DNA of 64,000 bases. Source: Candidatus Babeliales bacterium (GTDB lineage: Bacteria; Babelota; Babeliae; Babelales; JACPOV01). A program made the position numbers. Shown piece after piece: positions 34,401 through 43,400 of the stretch. Where the stretch lies: the NCBI GenBank assembly GCA_050250855.1, contig JBFWNW010000001.1, positions 64,001 to 128,000 of the forward strand, in the 5' to 3' direction. Position 1 is the first letter of the stretch, and the number at the start of each line of letters is the position of its first letter.

Positions 34401-37400
34401 CAGCAGTTTATGAGCTTAGTAAAACCGGGTGGTTTTTGTATAGTGCTCGAAATAAATCCCTGGCATTACGCTTCACGCCATGAATTTTATAACAATCCTG
34501 AAGAAAAAAATGCACAGATGCTTTCGCCATTTCAAGCATGGCGTTTAGTACGTAGGTATGGATCTTTTAGTTTTTATAGTTTTTCATTACCGTGGCCGCT
34601 GCATGGAGTAGAAACTTTTTTGTGCAAGGTGCCACTTGGCTCTTTGTATGTATTTAGAATAAAAAAGGGCGCCGATTAAGCGCCCTTTAAAATAGTTCTT
34701 TTTACTCTAAAAGTTTTTCTAACTTTTCACTTTCCGTGTTTTGTGTACTTATAGCTGCAGCAGCGCTTGCAGTATCTTGTGCTTTAACAGCGCGTGGAAT
34801 TCTGCGAGGTTTTTCTATAACCTGTTCATAAACAACAGGTTGTTGCTGTTCAACGACTACCGGTTGGTAATAACCGTCATAATAGCCGTTACCGACACCA
34901 AAGCCTAAGCCTGTGCCAAAACCAACACCAAAGCCCACACCAGGACCCCACCAGCCGCCACGTCTACCCCAGCCGCCGCCGCCCCAGCCGCCACGGCCAC
35001 GACCGCCGCCGCCAAAACCTCGGCCGCCGCCACCGCCTCGACCACCACGAGCTTCAAGCTCCAGGGTTTGTAAACCTATAAAACCTATAAATATGAGAGC
35101 AATTAATTTTTTTAACTTCATTATATTCTCCTCAAATAGTTCTTTTTTACAACTAATCATCTCTTACTATACGAAAAAATGGCCTTATTTAGCAATAAAT
35201 TTGAATTTTATTTTTATTATGCAATAAAGAGATAGGGGCATATTCTTGCCTTTTAGGGGTCGGCCCAGGTATACTCTAAAGAAAGTAATGTATAGGGGAT
35301 TTATCATGAAACGTATAGTTGTTATGCTATCACTAGTCTTTGCACTCAATCTTGGTGCAGCCCAGGTCCAAAAAACGAATAGCGAGCATTATGAAAAGCT
35401 CAAAAAAGCTCTGGGGTATGATCCGGAAGTGGAAGCATTTGATGCTTTGCGTCGTTTAGTTTTTGAGCATGCAAAAGGTAAATTTGGTGTAGAATATTTA
35501 AAAAATAAAAAAGAGCTTCTTGTCTACATACATCCAAAAGGTGATACTGATACCAGCGGTGTTTTTGTAGATTTTAAAAATCAACATGGTATTGTTTTTA
35601 AATTTCCCGATGATCAAACAACTAAAAAACTGAACGATAAAAAAGTTTTAGAACTAATACAAAACTATATAGAAGAACTTTATAAGCCACAAAAACTTTC
35701 TGTTTTTGGTGATAGAGAACGCATAGAAGAGTTGCTTAAATAATAGTGCACCAGCTGCCTTGTTGCTGCTCTGGTGTGGGAGTTTCTTCAGTTTCTAGAT
35801 TAAATTTTTTATCATAAAGTTTCTTGAACGCCGTATAAGATTCTTTTTGTTGAATATCTGGGTCGTTTATAATTTTTTCCAACCACGTAGTAGTATTTTC
35901 ATCTGCCTTTGTGCAAAGCTCTAAAAGTTTTTCTGCTTGCTCAAGTTTACCTTGTTGCAGCGCGTATAAAAGGGGCGTTACGCCATGTTCATTAGGAAAA
36001 AGTTTGATATGGTCTAATCTAATAAGTTCTGAAAAGAAATAGTTATTTCCAGATGCCAATGCATCTTGTACTATTGAGCGGCAACGTGCTTGATCAAGAC
36101 GTACATTGATGGTGCATGAGCCTTGGTGATTCTCTATTTTAAATTCTGGATTTTTTATAATCTTATCAAAAATATCCTTATCATTTAAAATAATTGCCGC
36201 ACATAAAGGAGTAATGAGCCGCCCTAAAGCGGACTTAAGTTCAAAGGGTTTTTCACCATTAACTTGTCGATCATTGAGTAGATTCAAGATTTTTTGCTTA
36301 TTTTCAGGGTTATAGTTATTAAAAGCTTCATGCAGCTGTGGCGTTTTATCGCCATAATTTTCTATAAAGTACATCATGCTGTAATTGTATGAAATGGTAA
36401 GCAGCGCAAAAACTAGTATTCGTATTTTCATAAAAATCCTTATTTTTATTGTTCCATTCGCACCCTTCGACAAGCTCAGGGCGAACGGAATAAAAAAATA
36501 GCTAGATTATGGCCGTTCGTGCTGAGCTCGTCGAAGCATTCGAACGGTAGTGAATATCTTATGGATAAATTCTAAGATAAAAGCTAACAGGCTCATTCTA
36601 CATTTTTTTAGTGGTTTTTTGCAATATGTATGTGATACACTTAAAAAAAACTAAAATAAAAAAAGGATTTTAGTGAAGTGCTCGTATATGTACCTCATTT
36701 TTTTAGTAGGTCATCTGCATGCTGCCGAGCCAGAACAAGCATATAAAAATCTCGTGCATACCATTGGCTATGACCCTGAAGTACGTATGTTTCAGGCATT
36801 GCGGCGTGAGCATTTTGACCATACGAACGAAGATTTTGGCATCGATTATTTTAAAGAATCACCACTTACCTTATATGTGCATGGCGCGCAAGAAACGGGT
36901 GATTATGCGTATGAACATACGGTTGAAGGTATTTTTGGTAACGTGTGTACTTTTGATTTTTCTGTCTACAGCTCAACGCACGAATTTCTTCAATATAATC
37001 AAAAGCATGCATTGATTGTAGAAGCTATTGCACAGTATGTACAAGAGCTGTATCAACCAAAAAAGCTTTCGTTATGTACCACGTCTGATGAAGGTTTTAG
37101 TGTGCTTGCTTATATTGCCTTGCGCCCTAAGGTTAGCTTTAATAATATTATTATTAATTTGATAGATTCTGCAAAAGCAATGAATCAAAAAAGCATGCTA
37201 ATAAAAAAATGGCAAAAAGCGCGATTGCACCGTTTGCAGCGCATAAAAAATGAAAAAATGTTGAGCTTGTATGAACAAAATAAAAAACATGCAACGACTG
37301 GTCCTCAGTTGCCTCAGATTTTAAAATTTGCTCATCAAAAGCAACCTGCAAAGCAACCAGTCAAACAGCGTGAGAAGCAGAAGCCCATGCCATTTTATAT

Positions 37401-40400: not shown

Positions 40401-43400
40401 AATCTTTTAAGCAGTCAGTAATTTTAGTATTATCTTGGTACAACTTGTGCAAAGCACGTTTCGTGCTCAGAAGAATTCTTGCATATCCTTCAGAAATAGG
40501 TTTTTGTGAAAAGTTTTTTTGTATGGTGGCAACTAATGTATCATCTAATAATGATGCTTCTTTGTTAAATGCCGGGCAGGTATTGCAGAGCGTTGCAATA
40601 TGCGGCATTAACATTTTTTTCTCTGCCATAAGCGTGAGAAGTTTTTGTTTGTCTTCGGGTGTTTCATTATGCTTTAAAAACCAATCTTGTGCACCTTTTA
40701 AAGGGAGCATCATGGCAGCTTTAAGATCAAAATCATTTTTATTCTCTTGATAATATGAAGCGAGAGCTTCATGGTAATCAAAAATTATATCGTCTAGGTC
40801 TTCAGATTGGGCAACTTTTTGCGCTTCTTGCTTTTTGCGTAGATTTTTGCGAAATTTACGCTCTGCAAGATTATGCCCCAAGCTCGTGATAAGATTTTTT
40901 ATACTCTGTTCTTGGTTAAGAACGTTGTTAAATTTTTTGCATACTAAAGAAAGATTTTTAAGAGTTGTTTGTGCATCTTGAGGATTTTCAAAATGAGCAG
41001 TTTGGATCATTATTTCCTGCAACAAAGTATCCGTATTTAATACTTGTTGTAAAGCAGTTTCAGCACAAAAAACAGACGTTGAATATATAAGGAGAAAAAT
41101 AACTAGTTTTTTCATAAAACCCCTACGTTTAAATTTTTACTTAAAGATAGAGGTCTTATATTTTTTGTCAAAAAATTATGATTTTTTATCCTGTGTATCA
41201 TAGCCAAGTTTGCGTAGCTCATCGCGTAATGCGTCAGCGCGTGCCCAATCTTTTTGCTTGCGCGCTTCTTCACGTTGCGCGATCAGTTTTTGCATTTCAG
41301 AGGTCACCGTAACTTCTTGTTCAGGAAGTGGTTCAAGCGTCAAGCCCAGTACTTCCATAATAAACTGTTTGACGGCGCAGAATGTTTCCTGATCTTTTTG
41401 TAGCGCATCAAGGTTAGAAAATAGTACGCCCCACAGGCCGGTAGTATTAACATCATCATATAAGAACGCAAGCATTTCTTGCACCAAAGGATTTTTTAAA
41501 ATATCTTGATCAGAAACTTTTTTGCATATGGTTTGCGCAAAGAACTTTGCCAATTTTTGATACGTTTTTTGTGCAACCTCTAATTCTTGTAAAGAAAAAT
41601 CAAGCGGTGCGCGATAGTGATGATTCAAATACAAAAAGCGCACAACCATAGGATCAAACTGCTTGAAAACATCACGCAAGGTAAAAAAATTGCCGAGTGA
41701 TTTTGACATTTTTTCTTTATTAATACGCACGAAAGCATTGTGCATCCAATAGTTTGCAAACGGCTTTTCGGTCAAACCTTCTGTTTGTGCAATTTCATTT
41801 TCATGATGCGGGAATATTAAATCCATGCCGCCACCGTGAATATCAATGCGATCGCCCAAATATTTTTGTGCCATAGCAGAACATTCAATATGCCAGCCCG
41901 GTCTTCCATAACCCCACGGACTCTTCCAAAACGTTCCTTCTTTTTCTGCTTTCCAGAGTGCAAAATCAAGAGGATCTTCTTTGTGTTCATCCACTTGTAC
42001 GCGTGCGCCAGCTTTAAGATCATCACTATTTTGTTTAGAGAGTTTGGTGTATTCAGGAAAAGATTTTATGCGAAAATAAACATCACCATCAACAACGTAT
42101 GCTTTTCCTTTGGCTATCAACCCTTCAATAAATTTGATAATTTCTGGTATAACCGCTGTTACGCGCGGTTCATAGGTTGGAGGCAAGCAATTAAGACGCG
42201 CCATATCTTCATGGTACGCATCAATAAAACGGGTTGCAATTTCTGCAAAGCGGAGCGGATCGTTATATTCTTTTTGGGCGCGTGCAATTAATTTGTCATC
42301 AACGTCAGTGAAATTTCTACAGTAGGTAACGTCATAGCCAAGCAAGCGTAAAAGCCTATACAAAACGTCAAAAAAAACATACACTCTTCCATGCCCCATA
42401 TGAGCAAAATCATAGGGCGTGATGCCACATACATACAAAAGAACTTTTTTGTCTGAAAGTGGCTTGAACGGTTCTTTTTTTCCGGTTAACGTATTAGTAA
42501 TTTTTAGCATGGTATGTATATGTTCTCCATAATTGGGTTGAAATTATTTATAAAAGATTAAAAAAGATACAGGTATTTTTCTGGTTAATTTCAGAAAAAA
42601 AGGTATTCTATTTTCTTAAACCTTGTTTATATTTTTTTACTAAAGTTTTGATATTGTGGCAAGAATCAGGAGCAATAATGATTGGGGCAAGAACTAAACC
42701 GAGAAGCAAAATGATTTTTTTTATTATACTATTACAACTGACATTATTTGTATGTGCAGATGAACCTTTGGTGTCAGAGTCGCTTGATTTGCAAGAAGAG
42801 GTTATGCAGGAGCCGATAACACCTGTAAGAGAAGAAACAGTCGGGAGCCCTGACAAGCAAGAAGCTGAAACATCTGAGTCGGTTGCCCAAGAAGAGCAAG
42901 AAGATGCGAGTCTTGATTTTGATGCACATGCGCACGATGATGCTCAAGACCAAGAGCAATTTGTTGATGAAGACAATGCGCCGGTTAAAGAAAAGTATAT
43001 AGCAGAGATTATTGTTGAGGGTAATAAACGTATTCCTTTGCAAGCAATAATCAGCCGTGTTCCCTATCGCTCAGGCGAAATCTTTTCACCACAAAAATCA
43101 AACAAATTGGTGCGTAACTTATATGATCTTGGTTATTTTAGACAAGTAGAAGTGTACGTTGAGGATGTAGATGCAGAGAGTCTTAACCTTATTGTTTCTG
43201 TTGATGAAAAGCGTGTTTTAGAGGAAGTAAGATTTTTTGGTAATTATAATCTTTCAGAAAAAGAGATTAAAAAGAAGCTTGATTTTTCAAAAGTTTCATG
43301 CGCTGATGAAGATGATATACCAAAATATATCAAGGTGCTAAAAAAATTATATCGTGATAAAGATTTTCATGATGTTGACATTAAAGCAGAACTACAAGGT

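Follow-up and report, generated by a model that had tools for sequence, protein, structure and literature searches.

Ankyrin-like proteins with putative CaaX boxes encoded by a Babeliales bacterium

Introduction

The CaaX-motif effectors of Legionella pneumophila, AnkB and Pel among them, are reported to be prenylated by the host at the cysteine four residues from the C-terminus (position -4) and to be anchored at the cytosolic face of host membranes (PMC2916131, PMC13081727), and prenylation of a C-terminal CaaX by the host is likewise described for the Salmonella effectors SifA and GtgE (PMC13423502, PMC6546311). Within the phylum Dependentiae, the cultured member Chromulinavorax destructans is described as invading its host, lying directly in the host cytoplasm and shedding vesicles, and as encoding 98 ankyrin-repeat (ANK) proteins, of which 78% have a signal peptide (PMC6561590). 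For TM6, type II secretion with two copies of gspD has been described as core (PMC4776705). A full-text literature search combining Dependentiae with CaaX or with prenylation found no publication.

A genome-wide survey's note on the genome of a Candidatus Babeliales bacterium, a protist parasite of this phylum, had singled out three proteins, g00087, g00090 and g00642, as secreted, ankyrin-like and ending in a CaaX box. The analysis reported here suggests, with a probability of roughly 0.6, that these proteins are effectors which would leave the bacterium through Sec and type II secretion and then be prenylated by host enzymes. Their endings are partly supported as putative functional geranylgeranyl-type CaaX boxes, C-x-[I/V/L]-[L/F/I/M/V], on repeat proteins that appear to be host-directed.

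Results and Discussion

Gene Neighbourhood and Gene Products

Two of the three genes lie in the window, i.e. the whole stretch of 64,000 nucleotides that was analysed. The features discussed below, with gene and signal-peptide calls made by home-made heuristics, are as follows:

32092..34070, (+) strand: two tandem canonical ankyrin-repeat proteins of 319 and 317 aa (Pfam Ank/Ank_2, E 1e-38 to 1e-46)
35246..35743, (+) strand: 'GYDPEV...' motif protein, 165 aa, unknown family, signal-like N-terminus
35736..36431, (-) strand: g00087, orphan, 231 aa from ATG, hydrophobic N-terminus MKIRILVFALLTISY
35739..35750, (-) strand: putative CaaX box of g00087, codons TGC ACT ATT ATT (C-T-I-I)
36673..37425, (+) strand: 'GYDPEV' paralog, 250 aa, divergent to g00087
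37428..39251, (-) strand: g00089, 607 aa, signal-like N-terminus, between the two putative CaaX genes
39571..41115, (-) strand: g00090, all-helical orphan, 514 aa, signal-like N-terminus MKKLVIFLLIYSTSVFCA
39574..39585, (-) strand: putative CaaX box of g00090, codons TGT ATA ATC TTT (C-I-I-F)
41062..41115, (-) strand: predicted Sec signal peptide of g00090, first 18 residues (direct sequence reading and hydrophobicity heuristic)

The product of g00087 consists of a helical ankyrin-like repeat domain and a Gln/Pro/Glu-rich linker running into the terminus ...QQQGSWCTII, with the TAA stop (35736-35738) directly after the CTII codons. In g00090 the C-terminal ~185 aa form a repeat domain of ankyrin-like kind that is homologous to g00087, and a tail predicted to be disordered leads from it to the terminus ...PQNGCGCIIF; the TAA stop (39571-39573) again directly follows the CIIF codons, and an extra cysteine stands two residues upstream of the CaaX cysteine (CGC). 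The third gene, g00642, is located on another contig (C2:205297-206148) and encodes 283 aa ending in ...QKATCCIIV. All three genes, their N-termini and their endings CTII, CIIF and CIIV were thus re-read as the survey had given them. They do not, however, amount to three independent cases, since g00087 and g00090 are paralogous (blastp E 3e-10, 29% identity over ~160 residues reaching to the tail), which leaves two independent families. By a crude hydrophobicity rule the N-termini of all three proteins are signal-peptide-like, although the same rule flags 45-48% of all ORFs of at least 100 aa in the genomes compared, so that such N-termini are not distinctive.

The ankyrin-like nature claimed for the three proteins holds to different degrees. 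The g00642 product is a true ankyrin-repeat protein, passing the Pfam cut-offs for Ank_2 (29.9 vs 27.3 bits) and Ank_4 (27.5 vs 22.7 bits), whereas for g00087 and g00090 the weak Ank_2 E-values of the survey (1.7e-4 and 5e-3) were reproduced, both under the Pfam cut-off, and the ankyrin character is moderately supported. An AlphaFold model of g00090 residues 330-514, built from three sequences (pLDDT 74.9), aligned to ankyrin-repeat structures with VIA-align Z-scores of 9-10; its pLDDT falls below 50 at residues 164-182 of the 185 modelled, and the tail is accordingly predicted to be disordered. The genome holds 127 Ank_2 matches, which include only g00642 of the three genes, and that weakly, so that CaaX endings are rare among ANK proteins; beyond g00087, g00090 and g00642, no other ORF of the genome was found to have a CaaX ending. 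An F-box, the domain that defines AnkB, is unsupported in g00090 (15.3 bits, with the cut-off at 24.3).

The gene between the two paralogs encodes, as the survey had it, a eukaryote-type PPP Ser/Thr phosphatase: g00089 combines a long E/R/Q/K-rich helical stretch with a phosphatase domain (GDLHGD, GDYTDRG, RGNHE; Pfam Metallophos 62.9 bits, 7e-17), and its best solved relatives among PDB sequence matches are rdgC, PP5, PP1 and PP2A (E 2e-14 to 1e-11). The signal-like N-termini of the two tandem ANK proteins are nearly identical, and neither protein ends in CaaX. Judging from sequence, the ANK pair, the phosphatase and the CaaX genes make up an island of putatively exported eukaryote-like proteins. 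The 3' end of the gene at 35246..35743 overlaps g00087 by 8 nt, and the protein encoded at 36673..37425 has no family match in Pfam. A 'GYDPEV' homolog in a genome of the same genus (G103, L014 92-490), like the 36673-37425 paralog, adjoins a CaaX gene, the likeness of these proteins having been judged by eye from translations, without alignment or score.

Conservation in Related Genomes

The source genome (G000) was compared with G103, with 800 kb of G101, which belongs to another genus, and with G098, a congener of G101. The G103 ortholog of g00642 (51-52% identity) retains the last five residues, CCIIV, unchanged despite a 6-residue indel in the linker. The G103 homolog of g00087 and g00090, of only 123 aa and lacking a signal peptide, ends in CIIV, and in this family (29-37% identity) the cysteine at -4 and the isoleucine at -2 are invariant within an indel-rich tail. 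G103 additionally encodes a strong ANK protein with a hydrophobic N-terminus (Pfam 1e-38) that ends in CQIV, as well as an orphan of 169 aa whose N-terminus is signal-like and whose ending is CEIV. In G101, proteins with signal-like N-termini end in CPIM (WD40), CTIS (FNIP/LRR), CVTL, KKKKCVIL and KRCTIL, the last two being small polybasic proteins whose G098 counterparts (43% and 66% identity) keep both the polybasic stretch and the CaaX as GKKKCIVQ and KKCTIL. The WD40 protein also has a G098 homolog (23% identity), which lacks a CaaX, as do all 154 ORFs of at least 100 aa in the 44 loci fetched as ANK-type matches from other genomes. Beyond the queries themselves, searches across 5.8 billion proteins yielded a single G103 ortholog; the homolog set is very small.

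Fit to Prenyltransferase Specificity

In the yeast GGTase-I screen of Sarkar et al. 2024, canonical substrates are those scoring <0.2 at 37 °C (137 of 8000 sequences), their logo is given as Cx[V/I/L][L/F/I/M/V], and the CVIL control scores 0 (PMC11304957). The scores listed there at 37 °C are 0.008 for CIIV, 0.022 for both CIIF and CTII, and 0.079 for CQIV (PMC11304957). The three endings of the source genome, CTII, CIIF and CIIV, thus score as canonical geranylgeranylated tails do in that screen. Among known GGTase-I substrates, I, V or F at the last position (X) is rarer than L.

Export Route

The survey had objected to its own reading that a Sec signal peptide leaves the cysteine in the periplasm. 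This objection is weakened by the two secretins and two T2SSE-family (GspE-type) ATPases encoded in the genome, which may provide a route out of the periplasm, and by the position of the cultured relative in the host cytoplasm and its vesicles. As for the claim that type III/IV secretion is missing, it holds for VirB4, the one component examined, which was searched for in the genome and not found.

It is conceivable, if unlikely, that the endings are recognised inside the bacterium's own envelope: a PDZ or C-terminal-processing protease, an Rce1-like (CPBP) membrane protease, or disulfide or other covalent attachment would act on the cysteine and hydrophobic C-terminus, and the proteins would remain periplasmic or surface-bound. 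Sec-type N-termini would place all three proteins in the periplasm by default, their departure from the cell is a step that host prenylation has to postulate, and three Rce1-like/CPBP proteins, one in a 1122-aa frame, score above the Pfam cut-off in this 1.2-Mb genome. CPBP proteins are, however, ordinary in bacteria, being found in 11 of the 14 control genomes, and no system by which bacteria recognise a cysteine exactly four residues from the end is known to us, no search aimed at one having been made. Moreover, the motifs agree in detail with the eukaryotic enzyme consensus and the yeast data, are accompanied in G101 and G098 by the kind of polybasic stretch that characterises the tails of eukaryotic small GTPases, and stand on carriers with eukaryote-type interaction domains (ANK, WD40, FNIP/LRR).

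Frequency of CaaX Endings

The narrow motif of the survey, for which 0.05 C-terminal cases had been expected and three seen, again gave an excess in the source genome (3 observed, 0.04 expected), yet this figure is inflated, the motif having been chosen post hoc and two of its carriers being paralogous. Under motifs fixed a priori the source genome alone shows no significant excess, with 3 cases vs 1.11 expected for the GGTase-I consensus C-x-[VIL]-[LFIMV] (P = 0.1) and 7 vs 3.2 for a PROSITE-like pattern. When motifs not derived from these data were counted as the last four residues of ORFs with at least 100 aa in G000, G103 and G101, three genomes of one family, taken together, the consensus occurred 12 times vs 2.69 expected (Poisson 2.5e-5), fewer than 12 of these being independent since orthologous pairs are included; the PROSITE-like pattern occurred 26 times (7.8 expected) and the classical C-[VILA]-[VILA]-x 7 times (3.9 expected, P = 0.1). 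Shifting the consensus 1-15 residues inward gave 0-5 cases (mean 2.7), and replacement of the cysteine by serine (7 vs 14.3 expected) or alanine (9 vs 15.5) gave a deficit. Two of the 12 endings look like chance, namely CIVV on a 4-TM membrane protein and CRVI on a cytosolic protein whose G000 ortholog has ARVI. Significance arises only from the addition of the two related genomes and from ortholog conservation.

These counts bear on the rather improbable view that the endings are functionless accidents of an AT-rich, Ile-rich proteome, spread by paralogy and recent common descent. The non-significant excess in G000, the paralogy of two of the three proteins and the ease with which short C-terminal motifs originate are in line with it, as is the fact that g00642 and its ortholog share their last five codons letter for letter in the DNA, so that no synonymous change demonstrates selection. 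Against it stand four families at 29-66% identity in which every member has the cysteine while the adjoining linkers change and gain indels, the 12 cases against 2.7 expected in three genomes with no excess in the shifted and Ser/Ala controls, and the reappearance of the motif on unrelated carriers in another genus. That the tails work in the host unprenylated, with S-palmitoylated cysteines (CGC and CC resemble palmitoylation sites) or as class II PDZ ligands (x-phi-x-phi, which hydrophobic C-termini fit), is very unlikely, given that an invariant cysteine at -4 is no requirement of a PDZ ligand, that the tetrapeptides agree with the prenyltransferase consensus and the screen data, and that hydrophobic endings are fewer, not more, than expected when Ser or Ala stands at -4.

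Proposed Mode of Action

The CaaX reading of the survey is therefore retained for the conserved cysteine at -4, the three-genome enrichment, the fit to consensus and yeast screen and the predicted disordered tail, with export and prenylation as its conjectural part. Sec would move the proteins to the periplasm, where the signal peptide would be cleaved off, and the type II apparatus (two secretins, GspE-type ATPase) or outer-membrane vesicles might carry them out of the cell, the bacterium itself perhaps lying directly in the host cytoplasm as its cultured relative does. Host GGTase-I or FTase would then prenylate the cysteine at -4, whereupon host Rce1 and ICMT would probably trim and methylate the C-terminal end. 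The lipid, together with the second cysteine (CGC, CC), which could be palmitoylated, would hold the repeat domain on the cytosolic face of a host membrane, where it might bind host proteins. Since putatively exported ankyrin-type proteins end in a lipid-anchor signal, it is probably the host itself that attaches them to its membranes.

Comparison with Known Systems

The likeness to AnkB and Pel lies in an amoeba-adapted intracellular bacterium whose effectors, in the literature cited above, combine eukaryote-like domains, including ankyrin repeats, with a CaaX ending. The Legionella effectors are described as having no Sec signal peptide and being injected by Dot/Icm type IV secretion, whereas the proteins studied here have Sec-type N-termini in a genome in which VirB4 was not found; there is no detectable sequence relationship between the two sets, the AnkB-defining F-box lacks support in g00090, X is I, F or V, and prenylation, reported for Legionella, is here a prediction. 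The tail of SifA has extra cysteines beside its CaaX, like CGCIIF and CCIIV. SifA and GtgE are, however, described as substrates of type III secretion in a proteobacterium and belong to unrelated protein families.

The ANK proteins of C. destructans share with those studied here the phylum, the Sec signal, the repeats and a presumed secreted, host-manipulating role (PMC6561590), but the available descriptions of such Dependentiae proteins include no lipidation signal. The CaaX device, known from Legionella, would thus be new for Dependentiae and for proteins exported via Sec-type N-termini. In eukaryotic small GTPases (Rho, Rap, K-Ras4B type) a flexible tail, which may include a polybasic stretch or a second cysteine, likewise precedes C-x-[I/V/L]-[L/F/I/M/V], KKKKCVIL of G101 being a textbook example of such a polybasic CaaL tail; unlike them, the carriers described here are bacterial non-GTPases with an N-terminal export signal.

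Gene neighbourhood of the CaaX-ending proteins

The genome under study (G000; 1,218,285 bases in 11 contigs, 95% complete) encodes three predicted exported repeat proteins with a putative CaaX box, the C-terminal tetrapeptide that is prenylated at its Cys (-4) by eukaryotic FTase or GGTase-I. The translations place the three genes where the genome-wide survey's note had located them, with the endings CTII, CIIF and CIIV, and the N-termini quoted there are correct. Two of the genes lie within the AT-rich window (GC 30-40%), and the surroundings of g00087 appear to be an island of exported, eukaryote-like proteins.

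Genes of the predicted island (window positions) and the third CaaX gene
32092-33051 and 33117-34070, plus strand: tandem pair of canonical ankyrin proteins (Pfam E 1e-38 to 1e-46)
34702-35160, minus strand: small Gly/Arg/Trp-rich protein, signal-like N-terminus, low-complexity core RGGRGGGGGRGFGGGGRGRGGWGGGGWGRRGGWWGPG...
35246-35743, plus strand: 'GYDPEV' family protein, signal-like N-terminus, 8-nt overlap with the 3' end of g00087
35736-36431, minus strand: g00087, 231 aa, ending WCTII
36673-37425, plus strand: 'GYDPEV' family paralog, signal-like N-terminus, divergent to g00087
37428-39251, minus strand: g00089, PPP-type phosphatase (Metallophos 62.9 bits)
39571-41115, minus strand: g00090, 514 aa, ending CGCIIF
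Contig C2, 205297-206148: g00642, ending TCCIIV

The description of g00089 as a eukaryote-like PPP phosphatase holds: in addition to the Metallophos match, its translation carries the GDxHG, GDxxDRG and GNHE motifs of PPP-family Ser/Thr phosphatases, and its best PDB matches are rdgC, PP5, PP1 and PP2A (E 2e-14 to 1e-11, over residues 238-354 only). Its signal-like N-terminus is separated from the catalytic domain by ~130 residues of nearly pure E/R/Q/K repeats (EQERRQKEQQERLERERQEQERK...), predicted to form a long charged helix that would be unusual among PPP enzymes.

Over their N-terminal ~33 residues, which take in the signal peptide and the beginning of the mature part, the members of the tandem ankyrin pair are almost identical; beyond that they have diverged, which suggests a recent duplication or a gene conversion confined to the 5' end. 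The Gly/Arg/Trp core of the small protein is extreme, and both its position and its character are conserved in a second genome of the genus, G103 (locus L014, 1171-1614, plus strand); RGG-type repeats are typical of RNA-binding and phase-separating proteins of eukaryotes. The 'GYDPEV' family, recognised by eye from the common stretch 'GYDPEV..F.ALRR..F.H' in the translations, has no Pfam match. In G000 and G103 alike, its genes adjoin the CaaX gene (L014 92-490, minus strand, in G103), and a functional link between the two is possible. Elsewhere in G000 (C4:39481-40038, plus strand), a 185-aa protein with a signal-like N-terminus ends in a dense run of Cys (...CIGYSCSACCFCCCTVCDSQ), which could be a lipidation-type or a metal-binding tail.

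Repeat domains

The ankyrin-like nature ascribed to all three proteins is established best for g00642, which exceeds the Pfam gathering cut-offs of Ank_2 (PF12796; 29.9 vs 27.3 bits) and Ank_4 (PF13637; 27.5 vs 22.7 bits). In the case of g00087 and g00090, the Ank_2 scores (22.5 and 17.8 bits) stay below the 27.3-bit cut-off, and the ankyrin character suggested by profile and model is only moderately supported. The top PDB match of a three-sequence profile is a designed ankyrin (E 0.0013), and 10 of 15 matches are ANK proteins. The three-sequence AlphaFold model of g00090 residues 330-514 (mean pLDDT 74.9, pTM 0.67) consists of helix pairs followed by a disordered end of ~20 residues, and it matches ANK structures (vaccinia K1, NPR1, Kidins220, Osh1, DARPins) with Z 8-9.8, values below 13 being common for helical repeats; a Foldseek search of the PDB with this model returned nothing at E <=0.001. 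The single-sequence model of full-length g00090 was unusable (pLDDT 42), its N-terminal 330 residues included. A candidate F-box in g00090, which would give an AnkB-like architecture, was rejected: the match at residues 50-69 reached only E 0.22, and a six-frame search gave 15.3 bits against a cut-off of 24.3, with matches at E <=1 in 13 of 14 control genomes.

Fit of the tetrapeptides to prenyltransferases

All three endings have Cys at -4 and fit the yeast-derived consensus Cx[VIL][LFIMV]. This consensus comes from Sarkar et al. (2024, PMC11304957), who screened the complete set of 8000 CXXX sequences and describe a score below 0.2 at 37 C (n = 137) as capturing Rho/Ras-related tails with the logo Cx[V/I/L][L/F/I/M/V]. 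According to File S1 of that study, the 37 C scores are 0.008 for CIIV and 0.022 for both CIIF and CTII (CVIL control, 0), while two further endings found in G103 score 0.079 (CQIV) and 0.29 (CEIV). CIIV and CEIV are also among the labels of the YPD/5-FOA figure in the supplement. The scores of 0.008-0.022 place the three G000 endings in the class that its authors regard as that of canonical sequences, which are fully processed and geranylgeranylated. The YPD/5-FOA figure presumably represents a Rho1-based screen.

Proposed export and way out of the cell

An SPase I signal peptide should show a basic n-region, an h-region of 8-15 hydrophobic residues and small residues at -3/-1; the N-termini were judged by eye and by our own Kyte-Doolittle rule. 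By these measures all three proteins are signal-like; since the rule flags 45-48% of all ORFs, in agreement with the 44% given in the genome description of Chromulinavorax destructans (PMC6561590), a signal peptide is in itself not distinctive. Plausible SPase I sites are VFCA|E in g00090 and LYA|T in g00642; the N-terminus of g00087 could instead be a signal anchor.

Among the gene products of G000 are two secretins (frames of 883 and 855 aa) and two T2SSE-family ATPases, and Yeoh et al. (2015, PMC4776705) list type II secretion, with gspD in two copies, as part of the phylum core. As to the absence of type III/IV secretion asserted earlier, VirB4 (PF03135), a type IV and not a type III marker and the sole injection-system marker searched, has no match in the 95%-complete genome. 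For Chromulinavorax destructans, Deeg et al. (2019, PMC6561590) report signal peptides on 44% of its proteins and on 78% of its 98 ankyrin proteins, the shedding of outer-membrane vesicles, and a bacterium that by 3 h 'has invaded the host cytoplasm'. When a bacterium lies free in the cytoplasm of its host, anything released across the outer membrane is exposed to the prenyltransferases there. Legionella type II substrates, as summarised in PMC5478897, reach the macrophage cytosol, a precedent even for a vacuolar bacterium. The objection that the Cys of a Sec-exported protein would stay in the periplasm is thus weakened by the two secretins, the T2SSE ATPases and the location of Chromulinavorax.

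The reading we prefer, with a probability of about 0.6, is that the proteins would leave the cell by Sec followed by type II secretion or vesicles, whereupon host prenylation would anchor their protein-binding repeat domain to a membrane. The second Cys in CGC (g00090) and CC (g00642) may add palmitoylation, which is known for extra Cys residues of Ras/Rho-type and SifA tails.

It is unlikely that the tail instead serves a function in the bacterial envelope, one in which three Rce1-like/CPBP genes may be involved. The Rce1-like/CPBP membrane-protease genes are three in 1.2 Mb above the Pfam cut-off, all outside the window, and one of them lies within a 1122-aa open frame, far above the usual length of the family.

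Rce1-like/CPBP genes of G000
C1:448552-448848
C1:59909-60190
C1:163557-163859

Chance versus selection

Host prenylation of the exported proteins has also to be weighed against CaaX endings that arise by chance and are multiplied by shared descent. g00087 is a paralog of the C-terminal ~160 residues of g00090 (blastp E 3e-10, 29% identity, aligned up to the tail), and g00642 has no detectable kinship with either (E 0.13-0.15); what had been counted as three separate cases therefore amounts to two families. In G000, our own greedy longest-ORF procedure yielded 1252 ORFs, 1074 of them of at least 100 aa. The narrow motif of the genome-wide survey's note (3 seen, 0.05 expected) gave 3 against 0.04 expected, though for a motif defined post hoc. 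The PROSITE-like pattern C-{DENQ}-[LIVM]-x was found 7 times (3.2 expected) and the GGTase-I consensus C-x-[VIL]-[LFIMV] (PMC11304957) 3 times (1.11 expected, P = 0.1). On its own, G000 offers no proof of more than chance.

The count was pooled over G000, G103 and part of G101, a genome of another genus of the family (800,000 of about 1,155,744 bases), giving 2850 ORFs of at least 100 aa from the home-made caller, with orthologous pairs taken twice. Placed precisely at the C-terminus, the GGTase-I consensus is found 12 times where 2.69 would be expected (Poisson 2.5e-5); placed 1-15 residues further in, it is found 0-5 times (mean 2.7). The PROSITE-like pattern reaches 26 against 7.8 expected. 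Endings that are hydrophobic but have Ser or Ala at the Cys position fall short of expectation (7 vs 14.3 and 9 vs 15.5 expected, respectively), and the strict definition C-[VILA]-[VILA]-x gives only 7 against 3.9. Two of the 12 consensus cases look accidental, namely a 4-TM membrane protein (CIVV) and a cytosolic protein ending in CRVI, the G000 ortholog of which has ARVI. For CaaX-plus-stop patterns in DNA, base composition leads one to expect ~1 chance match per genome with the most specific pattern and hundreds with the general one. Chance plus shared descent is quite an unlikely source of these endings.

Relatives across the phylum

The three proteins appear to be near-orphans. Among 5.8 billion proteins, the only matches were the queries, one truncated copy and one G103 ortholog, and with so few homologs a deep alignment is impossible. 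The public collection holds g00090 as a 335-residue form (P0003; 100% identical over 65% of the query, on a 10-kb contig), and the full-length protein, N-terminal part included, may thus be missing from public annotations. Among 261 genomes of the phylum searched with g00087 and g00642, only weak generic ANK matches were obtained outside the genus, and none of the 154 stop-ended ORFs of at least 100 aa at the 44 loci from the phylum search has a CaaX-type ending outside the genus.

Within the genus, the ortholog of g00642 in G103 (C22:16412-17242, 276 aa, 51-52% identity) keeps CCIIV exactly, while the linker before it shows a 6-residue indel and many substitutions. The 15 nucleotides of the last five codons are identical in the two genes, which makes a synonymous-change test on the CaaX codons uninformative. 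A G103 homolog of g00087/g00090 (L014 664-1035, plus strand) ends in KGKCIIV and has the neighbourhood of the window: a Gly-rich protein, a methyltransferase and a 'GYDPEV' family gene. In the alignment of these three sequences, Cys -4 and Ile -2 are invariant in a tail that is otherwise poorly conserved and rich in indels. The G103 protein comprises 123 aa, that is the last repeats and the CIIV tail, without a signal peptide; either its gene is decaying or the protein has a different way out of the cell. Two further G103 proteins have no counterpart in G000: a 427-aa strong ankyrin protein (Pfam 1e-38) with a hydrophobic N-terminus and the ending CQIV, and a 169-aa orphan with a signal-like N-terminus and the ending CEIV.

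CaaX-ending proteins with signal-like N-termini in G101
573-aa WD40 protein, ending CPIM
C1:401380-402867 (L143 1380-2864): 495-aa FNIP/LRR protein, ending CTIS
384-aa protein, ending CVTL
Two adjacent small proteins, ending KKKKCVIL and KRCTIL

Both small proteins are syntenic in the congener G098, where the polybasic stretch and the CaaX box are kept (GKKKCIVQ, 43% identity; KKCTIL, 66%). The sole G098 homolog of the WD40 protein (23% identity) is without a CaaX box, and the FNIP/LRR protein has no homolog in the four other genomes of its genus. Elsewhere, FNIP repeats are found typically in Dictyostelium and giant viruses, and their presence in G101 hints at gene exchange inside amoebae. 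Overall, the Cys of the CaaX box is invariant in 9 of 9 sequences from four families of 2-3 sequences each, aligned at 29-66% identity. It is very improbable that the tail acts in the host otherwise than by prenylation.

The CaaX interpretation of the genome-wide survey's note is strengthened, not proven. A broader reading, which we hold tentatively and at somewhat less than even odds, is that host prenylation serves this Dependentiae family as a general targeting strategy across a whole protein set, without an injection apparatus. The set would comprise ANK, WD40 and FNIP/LRR repeat proteins as well as very small proteins in which little besides a small domain separates the signal peptide from a polybasic CaaX tail of the Ras/Rho kind. 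Sec and type II secretion or vesicles would release all of them straight into the host cytoplasm, where lipidation would follow. The X residue would vary with the genus, I, V or F in one and L, M, S or Q in the second, perhaps in step with prenyltransferases that differ between the protist hosts.

Comparison with known systems

Dependentiae are widespread, mostly uncultured parasites of protists, with export signals on ~45% of their proteins and dozens of ankyrin proteins; Chromulinavorax, Babela and Vermiphilus are in culture. A full-text literature search found no paper linking the phylum with CaaX or with prenylation. A conserved CaaX box is sensible only where the protein meets eukaryotic cytosolic enzymes, and it therefore marks, by sequence only, exported proteins that probably act in the host cytosol, on a membrane. 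If the preferred reading is true, host prenylation of bacterial effectors would reach beyond Proteobacteria and be open to proteins released by Sec and type II secretion or by vesicles. It would also provide a few tractable candidates (three here, others in the relatives) for finding the remodelled host membrane and its partners. Should the general strategy be true as well, it would constitute the first class of Sec-dependent bacterial effectors with host lipidation, and would allow the real cytosolic effectors to be told from sequence alone among the signal-peptide proteins that uncultured intracellular bacteria encode by the hundred.

The same mechanism as proposed here is described for AnkB and the Pel proteins of Legionella (PMC2916131, PMC13081727) and for SifA and GtgE of Salmonella. 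The F-box of Legionella AnkB has no supported counterpart in g00090, and for the dedicated type III/IV injection characteristic of AnkB/SifA-type effectors, the one marker searched in G000, VirB4, has no match. The known effectors are delivered by type III/IV injection, whereas the G000 proteins carry a Sec-type export signal and differ from them in phylum, in protein family and in the X residues of their tails.
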